Made by a program: the position numbers and the translations under genes
Shown here: positions 20,572 through 55,754 of the stretch, in pieces
How positions within the stretch are numbered: position 1 is the stretch's first letter
Layout: the number at the start of each line of letters is the position of its first letter
Assembly: GCA_951406725.2 (NCBI GenBank)
Contig: OX597816.1
Location: 152,086,001-152,150,000, forward strand
DNA length: 64,000 nucleotides
Source: Octopus vulgaris
Taxonomy: Eukaryota
Direction: 5' to 3'
The notes under the pieces: generated by a model
Seen by the model: only the letters and a program-made list of their open reading frames with translations
Database searches by the model: none
What the model was told of the DNA's origin: nothing

Positions 20572-20745
20572 TTCTATTTCTTTACTACCCACAAGGGGCT
20601 AAATACAGAGGAGACAAACAAGGACAGACAAACGGATTAAGTCGATTACATCGCGACCCCAGGGCGTAACTGGTACTTAATTTATCGACCCCGAAAGGAT
20701 GAAAGGCAAAGTCGACCTCGGCGGAATTTGAACTCAGAACGTACA
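20572..20745 (-). mobile_element. SINE family A
   Basis: Reverse complement of family consensus (CGACCCCGAAAGGATGAAAGGCAAAGTCGACCTCGG). Confidence 0.9.
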
Positions 20746-21310
20746 GCAAGCAACTGGTGTTTTCTTGACAAAAAGGTGGCGTAGATATTTGCTGCTGCTC
20801 AAGCTAACTGGCAGAAATCTAGATTCAGAAATTTCACCACTAATGTTGGGTGACCTCCGGCTGCTGCTGGTATTTTTCTATGTTTTTAATACAATGTATC
20901 TATAAGAGATACATTCTGAAGATGAATACCGCAGTTTGGAAAGATTTCAACCAACACACATTTGAAGTATGTATACCAGTGGTTCCCAACCTCGGGCCGC
21001 GGACTCCTGGTGGTCCGCAAAGGTAGTGCTGGGATTCCGTGAACTAAATTCAAAATTTCATATATATTTATATATATATATATATATATATATAGCAATA
21101 ATAATTCTCTAAAAGAGATATAGACAGTAACTGCTCGATAACATAAGGGACTAAAGCCATCTGAATATGGCTAGGGACAGGGCAGGGTGGTGGGGGTGTT
21201 ACTGTTGCATTTAGCCCCAGGCGAACATCGACGTCGCCAGATAGGCCCGACACCGTCACGGTGTCCTTTAACCTGCAAAGGGAGATAATTCCCCGATGAA
21301 GCGGAAACCA

Positions 21311-21356
21311 CACACGGACCATGGTTTCAAGGTGTATTGCCTATCATCAACGTGTG
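21311..21356 (-). ncRNA. Minimal type I hammerhead ribozyme (U3 variant)
   Basis: Minus strand: CACACG-TTGATGA-TAGGCAATACACCTT-GAAA-CCATGG-TC-CGTGTG; perfect 6-bp stem I, AGG/CCT stem II, palindromic stem III, GUC cleavage triplet. Confidence 0.75.
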
Positions 21357-22010
21357 GTAGGCCTCCGCTTCCTCGACAAAATCTCACTCTGCAGGATATT
21401 CATATATAGATTTTCAAGCAAAATACATTTGCTGATTTCGAAAATCTGTTCGACAGCAATAATAATTCTCTAAAAGAGATATAGACAGTAACTGCTCGAT
21501 AACATAAGGGACTAAAGCCATCTGAATATGGCTAGGGACAGGGCAGGGTGGTGGGGTGTTACTGTTGCATTTAGCCCCAGGCGAACATCGACGTCGCCAG
21601 ATAGGCCCGACACCGTCACGGTGTCCTTTAACCTGCAAGGGAGATAATTCCCCGATGAAGCGGAAACCACACACGGAGAAACCATGGTCCGTGTGTGGTT
21701 TCCGCTTCATCGGGGAATTATCTCCCTTTGCAGGTTAAAGGACACCGTGACGGTGTCGGGCCTATCTGGCGACGTCGATGTTCGCCTGGGGCTAAATGCA
21801 ACAGTAACACCCCCACCACCCTGCCCTGTCCCTAGCCATATTCAGATGGTTTTAGTCCCTTATGTTATCGAGTAGTTACTGTCTATATCTCTTTTAGAGA
21901 ATTATTATTGCTGTCGAACAGATTTTCGAAATCAGCAAATGTATTTTGCTTGAAAATCTATATATGAATATCCTGCAGAGTGAGATTTCGTCGAGGAAGC
22001 GGAGGCCTAC

Positions 22011-22056
22011 CACACATTGACGATAGGCAATACACCTTGAAACCATAATCCGTGTG
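22011..22056 (+). ncRNA. Second hammerhead copy (stem III mutated)
   Basis: CACACA-TTGACGA-TAGGCAATACACCTT-GAAA-CCATAA-TC-CGTGTG. Confidence 0.6.
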
Positions 22057-22212
22057 TGGTTTCCGCTTCATCGGGGAATTATCTCCCTTTGCAGGTTAAA
22101 GGACACCGTGACGGTGTCGGGCCTATCTGGCGACGTCGATGTTCGCCTGGGGCTAAATGCAATAGTAACACCCCCACCACCTTGTCCATGTCTAGCCATA
22201 TTCAGATGGCTT

Positions 22213-22254
<42 letters not shown>

Positions 22255-22350
22255 CAAAGGATATCGCGGTACACGAGTTTCATAAACGACCCCTTAATGC
22301 TGTGTATTTCATGCTGTGCTGTATGAGACACGCTTATGTGCACGAGTAAG

Positions 22351-24654: not shown

Positions 24655-24750
24655 TTGTGACTGAAGAGAGCTTTAAACCATCTTTTATATCAATTATACA
24701 CTGAAGTTAGAAAGGGGTCGTTTATAAAGCTTGAAACTCGTGTACCGCGA
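24655..24750 (+). ncRNA. Type I hammerhead ribozyme (Penelope pseudo-LTR-like)
   Basis: TTGTGA-CTGAAGA-GAGCTTTA..TAAAGCTT-GAAA-CTCGTG-TA-CCGCGA; canonical core, stem I weakened by probable CpG decay. Confidence 0.7.
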
Positions 24751-24844
24751 TATCCTTTGTGTTCTGTTTTTGATTTTATTTGATATATTCCCTCTCACCT
24801 CTGCCACTATCTGGCATATACAGGTGCTTACACTTATCAAGTAT

Positions 24845-55137: not shown

Positions 55138-55754
55138 AAAGGCGGCGAGCTGGCAGAAACGCTAGCATGCCGGGTGAAATGCTTAGCGGTATTTCGTCCG
55201 CCGCTACATTCTGAGTTCAAATTCGACAGAGGTCGACTTTGCCTTTCATCCTTTCGGGGTCGATTAAATAAGTACCAGTTACGCACTGGGGTCGATATAA
55301 TCAACTTAATCCGTTTGTCTGTCCTTGTTTGTCCTCTCTGTGTTTTGCCCCTTGTGGATAGTAAAGAAATGGGTATTTCGTCTGTCGTTACATTCTGGGT
55401 TCAAATTTCGCCGAGGTCGACTTTGCCCTTCATCCTTTCGGGGTCGATTAAATAAGTACCAGTTACGCACTGGGGTCGATGTAATCGACTTAATCCCTTT
55501 GTCTGTCCTTGTTTGTCCCCTCTATGTATAGCCCCTTGTGGGCAATAAAGAAATAAGAAATGTTAGCACGCTGGGCCAAATGCTAAGCGCTATTTCGTCT
55601 GTCTTTATGTCCTAAGTTCAAATTCCGCCGAGGTCGACTTTGCTCTTCATCCTTTCAGGGTCGATAAGTTTAGTACCAGTTGCACGCTGGAGTCGATCTA
55701 ATCGACTGGCCCTCCTCCCCCAAAATTGCGGGCCTTGTGCCTAGAATAGAAAAG
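55138..55754 (+). mobile_element. Trimeric SINE family A with TSD
   Basis: Three central domains; AATATTCACATCT at 55122-55134 and 55755-55767. Confidence 0.92.

Follow-up and report, generated by a model that had tools for sequence, protein, structure and literature searches.

The 1.1-kb palindrome in the OX597816.1 window of Octopus vulgaris (the window being the whole stretch of 64 kb analysed here) belongs to a family of hammerhead retrozymes with a 360-nt unit, of which it is a single insertion that bears a Penelope-type footprint. Its two arms are best explained, with a probability of about 0.8, by a Penelope-like enzyme that twice carried out target-primed reverse transcription on the same RNA, which was uncut or circular. 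The preliminary description of this DNA had instead tied the centre of the palindrome to self-cleavage of the RNA, the junction between the arms lying next to the predicted ribozyme cut. Junction points are however spread along the whole unit in other insertions of the family, and the closeness of this one junction to the cut is therefore due to chance; the coincidence is not significant and the claim is to be dropped.

Architecture of the insertion

The palindrome occupies positions 21094-22214, is flanked on each side by a (TA)n tract and is composed of a 360-361-nt unit that has no other copy in the window. Unit positions are numbered from the predicted cut, position 1 being the first nucleotide 3' of GUC. 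The features of the locus are the following.

21060..21093, no strand: (TA)n target, left flank, like that of two-arm insertions elsewhere
21094..21677, minus strand: left arm, 584 nt, 1.6 units; 5' start at unit -2, 3' long end at unit 222
21094..21137, minus strand: 44-nt 'tail' corresponding to unit 179-222, present in the left arm only; weak hairpin predicted
21308..21357, minus strand: complete type I hammerhead-like motif; predicted cut between 21317 and 21316
21677..21678, no strand: head-to-head junction, blunt, 0 nt microhomology
21678..21689, plus strand: 3' half of a hammerhead (GAAA, stem III, UC), which opens the right arm upstream of the predicted cut between 21689 and 21690
21678..22214, plus strand: right arm, 537 nt, 1.5 units; begins (5') at unit -12 and has a trimmed 3' end of the short class
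22010..22059, plus strand: internal hammerhead copy, decayed, with AA in place of GG in stem III and a single change in helix I
22218..22249, no strand: (TA)16 target, right flank

Read on the minus strand from 21677 to 21094, the left arm begins at unit -2, passes through one full unit and continues to 222. The right arm begins at unit -12 and passes through one full unit until the match stops at unit 164, after which CCC (22215-22217) precedes the (TA)16 tract. The complete motif at 21308..21357 presents the core UUGAUGA, helix II AGG/CCU, GAAA, the palindromic CCAUGG and UC, with an extended helix I that continues outside these limits. The predicted cuts flanking the junction fall between 21689 and 21690 on the plus strand and between 21676 and 21675 on the minus strand. 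The geometry given in the preliminary description is exact in its coordinates: the left arm ends at 21677, 2 nt past the predicted GUC cut, the right arm begins with GAAA at 21678, and both arms read outward in ribozyme sense (left 21094-21677, minus; right 21678-22214, plus). Its comparison with inverted Penelope insertions also holds, in that the insertion of this hammerhead-bearing unit is of Penelope type and inverted, head-to-head. Had the arms been joined through the 12-nt palindrome of stem III, no GAAA would remain between them, whereas GAAA is present, starting at 21678, and the join is therefore not the stem III palindrome.

Two other repeats were observed in the window. Directly after the (TA)16 flank lies the first of two perfect 32-nt inverted repeats (22251-22282 and 24732-24763), 2449 nt apart, which are possibly the ends of a DNA transposon. 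A 184-nt SINE-like repeat in two tandem copies at 55188-55554 resembles a repeat at about 20620-20740.

The predicted hammerhead ribozyme

Each unit contains one type I hammerhead-like motif comprising the core, a helix II with a basal U-U or G-U pair, GAAA, a short helix III closed by a palindromic loop, and UC, together with a long extension of helix I (fold z=-4.2). The 12 named pairs are all retained in each of 11 natural variants (12/12 in 11/11), and a compensatory change from C-G to U-A in the older subfamily represents one event. Among 280 copies the stem III letters are CCAUGG in 260, CCUAGG in 16 and CCUGGG in 2, the first two being palindromic. Nearly all copies carry CCGAYGA or UUGAYGA as their core, in place of the canonical CUGANGA. 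These two cores differ at unit 327-328, where the UUGAYGA of older copies has given way to CCGAYGA in the youngest, and both adjacent changes skip the canonical CUGA.

A scan of the window with Rfam at gathering scores gave no match to any model, the hammerhead included. At E values up to 5 it returned hairpin-shaped miRNA models and chance matches only, which we attribute to the DNA palindrome. A natural hammerhead with a U4C core variant is described in the available text of PMC3088659 as weak in vitro and sufficient in vivo in a viroid, and on this precedent we regard the unit as carrying a variant hammerhead and not a non-hammerhead. Hammerheads with a short palindromic helix III are thought to act as dimers, and in Schistosoma pairs of hammerheads lie on opposite strands 100-700 bp apart (passages of PMC4209133). 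Self-cleavage of the unit RNA after GUC is a prediction from sequence. The probable role of the ribozyme comes at an earlier stage, in the production of unit-length RNA and rings, and not in fixing the ends of insertions.

The family, its ends and its target

An exact 28-mer of the unit matches the genome 2319 times and, extrapolating from the first 100 of these matches, which fell in 34 insertions, we estimate a total of about 800-1200 insertions. We parsed 151 insertions, the window excluded: 34 consecutive ones on a single contig (C1), 77 found by a long end beside TA, and 40 found by similarity or by a match spanning the cut. The first two sets are unbiased for the position of arm starts and the third is biased. 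Arrays of the 360-361-nt unit reach about 10 units per arm; coding capacity was assessed by unit size only.

The arms are arranged head-to-head in 113/151 insertions and tail-to-tail in none. It is scarcely conceivable, given the recurrence of this architecture and of strand-skipping joints in unassembled runs, that the palindrome is an assembly artefact or a post-insertion rearrangement of DNA. The unit is a high-copy repeat and none of the unassembled contigs listed spans 21677 and 21678, but the two arms of the window mismatch at several sites and their ends are distinct and defined.

A long end (near unit 222) is paired with a short end (near 178) in 107 of the 110 classifiable insertions, a count to which the sample of 77, selected for a long end, contributes; in the C1 set, which was unselected for end type, the pairing is 23/23. 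The exceptions are L063 (long/long) and L020 and L027 (scored short/short), with L062, L248 and L319 as further ones from sets picked near the cut. Long arms stop at 222 in 95/108 and short arms at 178 in 89/108, the short class including trimmed ends (150-182), and the tail present at one end only is 44 nt. A (TA)n tract is found on both flanks of 94/98 two-arm insertions, and target duplications of 12-15 bp (about 12) at the seven loci with informative flanks (L065, L066, L005, L007, L239, L311 and L320).

An older subfamily with 85-88% identity (L123, L167, L174, L183, L199 and L201) has the same 178/222 ends and compensatory changes in helix I. At L173 a single (TA)n tract holds two separate two-armed insertions side by side. 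L217, considered as a second family sharing the long end, turned out to be a 31-nt stub inside another repeat family; in that family (L217, L325:289-2781) the long-end stub and a further unit fragment of 48 nt adjoin a 1.2-kb duplication whose copies are about 90% alike.

Arm starts relative to the predicted cut

The mechanism put forward in the preliminary description has reverse transcriptase running off the 5' end left by self-cleavage and changing strand or template via stem III, with junctions clustering at the cut. In the two unbiased sets, from which arms shorter than 45 nt (4/191) and duplicate loci of one insertion were dropped, 3/187 arm starts lie within 3 nt of the cut, compared with 2.9 expected from the exposure-corrected mean rate, and 5 lie between -12 and +2 (6.7 expected). 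The biased, similarity-picked set has 0/69 starts within 3 nt (1.2 expected). Arms traverse the cut site 177 times and stop within 3 nt of it 3 times. When the genome was searched with a pattern for arms broken off anywhere from +24 to -22, 6/81 fell within 3 nt of the cut, where a flat spread would give 10.6. This pattern, which by design misses about half of all arms including both arms of the window, returned 90 rows that were judged by eye (the first 30 also checked by script), and 9 were dropped as internal indels or degenerate read-through; one of the dropped rows, L252, would if kept make the count 7/82. An earlier pattern that matched ordinary read-through copies was the source of five locus addresses only, and these were put in the biased set.

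Closeness of junction and cut beyond chance is thus absent from both the pooled and the genome-wide counts, and the peak of 5' ends or inversion points that had been predicted within a few nucleotides of the cut does not appear in other copies. At 4 loci, the window included, both arms begin no more than 30 nt upstream of the cut; controls of equal design give 9 loci at unit ~90 and 2 at unit ~250. The arm stops of the window lie about 10 nt apart, i.e. in the phase-coupled class described below, in which a double start near any landmark is commoner.

The switch through stem III fares no better, a perfect palindromic join being found at 0 loci of the genome with 2 mismatches allowed, while 0/10 of the inversion joints listed for unassembled runs lie at the cut by our own conversion to unit positions. 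Run-off itself is difficult to reconcile with the right arm of the window, which contains 12 nt from upstream of the cut that are absent from a cleaved linear RNA. The starts at -2 and -12 in the window remain in its favour, the left arm being readable as a start at +1 plus 2 untemplated nucleotides, as does the C1 set taken alone, in which 3/56 starts lie within 3 nt of the cut compared with 0.9 expected (p=0.057). Single arms starting at +1, -1, +2 or -2 do exist (L308, L309, L310, L044, L081 and L082), and a run-off path may operate in about 1-2% of arms. As a general rule it is refuted, and as the explanation of this palindrome it is very improbable.

The contrary outcome, a uniform distribution of ends, is essentially what was found, since starts occur along the whole unit, although the distribution is not perfectly flat. 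Start density is uneven, with 54 starts against 25 expected at 41-80 (33 against 16 among arms of at least 95% identity) and 10 against 34 at 241-320; RNA structure, or a short length that is favoured, may underlie this excess and deficit. Start peaks at the reverse transcription start phases, as would follow from a stall after one round, were also considered and rejected, since in the unbiased sets the counts at 174-185 (4 against 5.5) and 217-228 (7 against 4.6) are not significant; the biased set has 5 against 1.9 expected. The sign asymmetry between longer and shorter arms was left out because it is confounded by the length cut-off.

Relations between the two arms

The starts of the two arms coincide in phase, to within 30 nt, in 40/99 simple insertions compared with 20.0 on permutation (p<0.001), and they are still in phase in 17/46 of those whose arm ends differ by more than 200 nt (18% expected). 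The arms also share their sequence variants. They are identical at diagnostic sites in 46/51 insertions, as against 17.4% of 2811 between-insertion pairs, and across 70 insertions they diverge by 0.8% within an insertion compared with 3.0% between insertions. A variant that is fixed in both arms and private among the sampled insertions was found in 9/108, in one case spanning 8 unit copies. Unit copies within long arrays are near-identical (mean 0.2-6 differences in 8 arrays).

That two separate RNAs were copied independently and the products united by host end-joining, the similarity of the arms reflecting one active source at a time, is a rather unlikely alternative. In 59/99 insertions, or about 60%, the two starts are more than 30 nt apart in phase, as independent copying would allow, and the blunt and microhomology joins suit end-joining. 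Phase coupling above permutation and the private variants fixed in both arms argue in the opposite direction, and the near-strict pairing of long and short ends suggests one bound RNA. This alternative differs from the preferred reading, that of two reverse transcriptions of a single RNA, in the one-RNA step only, and our confidences in the two overlap.

A fold-back of the first cDNA would also account for the shared haplotypes and the phase coupling. Here one cDNA would prime itself so that the second arm is copied from the first, with the tail trimmed at resolution and later deletions blurring the centre. Such a route has been put forward for the inverted junctions of Penelope (PMC3846280) and the tail ascribed to endonuclease resolution (PMC8557442), in the parts of these sources available to us. 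One arm is nested in the other in 70/97 insertions, and L031 and L087 have perfectly symmetric joins, as fold-back would give, but in the remaining 27/97 neither arm is contained in the other and large central deletions would be needed. Moreover, either arm may reach further 5' (40 versus 43 of 108, with 25 within 30 nt), and fold-back gives no simple reason why the copy should end at the opposite site whichever arm is the longer. Both boundaries of the tail of an Anolis Penelope-like element are reverse transcription start sites in vitro, according to the available text of PMC11167929, and fold-back is on balance improbable.

Short overlaps between the arms are in excess at the joins, as the preferred reading would have it: an overlap of at least 3 nt is present at 20/70 young joins compared with about 5% by chance, a count that BLAST extension may slightly inflate. 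One ribozyme-linked junction hotspot was seen, and it is small but real. It lies in helix I, where 15/81 starts fall at +12 to +14 compared with 5.3 expected (p=0.0002, for an interval chosen post hoc). A recurrent join from unit 306 to 11-12, found at L168, L248, L305 and L306 with differing arm structures, sits at an 8-nt complementarity between the strands of the extended helix I, and a similar helix I joint is present in the unassembled run X15. At L104, L067, L094 and L234 the joins are complex and include additional internal pieces of the unit; several of these pieces have an end at unit 357-358, just within stem III, and may be template jumps.

A model for the insertion

Returning to the preferred reading of two target-primed reverse transcriptions, a dimer of a Penelope-type reverse transcriptase-endonuclease would make a staggered double cut about 12 bp wide in (TA)n, and both DNA ends would then prime on the same RNA, one at unit 222 and the other at 178. 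Synthesis would pass the ribozyme site and run for up to about 10 units, with variable stops that often lie near the stop of the other cDNA. The 3' ends of the cDNAs would finally be joined, either blunt or by short inverted homologies, helix I being favoured. The parts of this model differ in strength: two priming events per insertion are highly probable, the sharing of one RNA by both arms is somewhat favoured, and the identity of that RNA as a circle is a tentative proposal.

A more specific and equally tentative version places a Penelope-like element (PLE) dimer on one circular retrozyme RNA, with one cDNA starting from each edge of the 44-nt tail and rolling round the ring. In the same ring reading, to be held just as cautiously, joining would occur where a cDNA meets the end of the other or where the cDNA copies of helix I anneal. 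If true, these insertions would be a genomic record both of the PLE integration step and of retrozyme mobilisation from circles. Contigs of 390 nt that step back by 360 were found in 2/4 runs of different studies, runs that are guessed to be RNA. Such contigs would arise from tandem DNA too, and as a linear multimer would also look alike, the near-identical arrays and looping contigs fit a circle but do not prove it. The shared haplotypes could likewise stem from one source locus per germ line or from later conversion between arms, and the phase coupling modulo 360 could be the product of a linear multimer or of units gained or lost afterwards.

Comparison with known systems

What is new here is the cut-site test and the junction statistics, and not the system itself. 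The metazoan non-LTR retrozymes, as described in the available text of PMC7229834 and bioRxiv 10.64898/2026.07.22.740005, likewise consist of a non-coding tandem unit (150-450 bp, 350-390 in mussel) with one type I hammerhead per unit that has a short helix III and a palindromic loop; they likewise show duplications of more than 4 bp and a proposed dependence on PLEs, from which the bioRxiv text argues that they derive. The octopus family differs in its variant cores CCGAYGA and UUGAYGA and in its dispersed two-armed insertions with fixed ends; its cleavage is predicted from sequence and its circles are a tentative proposal. Head-to-head arms and fixed ends of retrozymes are not described in the accessible portions of PMC7229834, in which the word 'inverted' is absent, or of bioRxiv 10.64898/2026.07.22.740005.

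The footprint of EN+ PLEs, as set out in passages of PMC8557442 and PMC3846280, comprises an inverted 5'-truncated copy, a 30-40-bp tail at one end and a bias to microsatellites. The octopus family has the same head-to-head inversion at the 5' end, one-end tail, microsatellite targets and partial tandems. It differs in that its unit is without an open frame, its tail is 44 nt and its duplications are about 12 bp, compared with 8-10 bp in Adineta (PMC8557442, PMC3846280), and the counts presented here cover 151 insertions with statistics of pairing, phase and haplotype.

The closest biochemical counterpart is the Poseidon (PAc) PLE of Anolis, for which we rely on the available parts of PMC11167929. 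In vitro this element cuts and extends both strands of AT-rich DNA, is predicted to form a dimer and starts reverse transcription at two internal sites that bound the tail; ribozyme cleavage is dispensable for it, and no RNA reads end at the cut. The two tail-bounding starts, the use of both strands and the AT-rich targets are shared with the octopus family, whereas Poseidon is autonomous and its start site is alike on both strands. The pairing of one site with each arm and the joining of arms are not addressed in those parts of PMC11167929. The negative result at the cut agrees with the in vitro reverse transcription of uncut RNA by a PLE (PMC11167929). The octopus family provides a large natural data set on how Penelope-like elements form inverted ends and tails.

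In L1 twin priming, two primers on one RNA give rise to an inverted 5' segment in a head-to-head arrangement. L1 primes at the poly(A) end and at a variable internal site, and its two pieces are without overlap. In the octopus family, by contrast, the two starts are fixed and the sequences of the arms overlap. Within the literature covered, older subscription papers and supplements lying outside its scope, we found no study of a retrozyme in which the pairing of arms, their coupling in phase or the position of 5' ends relative to the cut had been counted.

An autonomous Penelope-like family in the same genome

No frame combining reverse transcriptase and GIY-YIG was found inside the unit arrays, and none linked to them was seen in the flanks among the matches listed for 41 single-arm loci. 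A GIY-YIG-like frame near L176 led to an autonomous Penelope-like family of the same genome with an open frame of 727 aa, which we take from its motifs to be of Neptune type; the 727-aa protein has no Pfam or PDB match. Of its insertions 20 were fetched, and 13/14 of those with two ends again show the long/short footprint; the tail is about 70 nt, compared with 44 nt in the retrozyme. There is no significant shared sequence between this family and the 360-nt unit, and the family is therefore not identified as the partner of the retrozyme. It is young and high-copy, as observed at L296 (3756-5936) and L285-L304; it inserts into (TA)n as head-to-head arms, and its two fixed ends are separated by about 70 nt. 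The same family contains a minimal hammerhead with a canonical core at L296:6952-6975.
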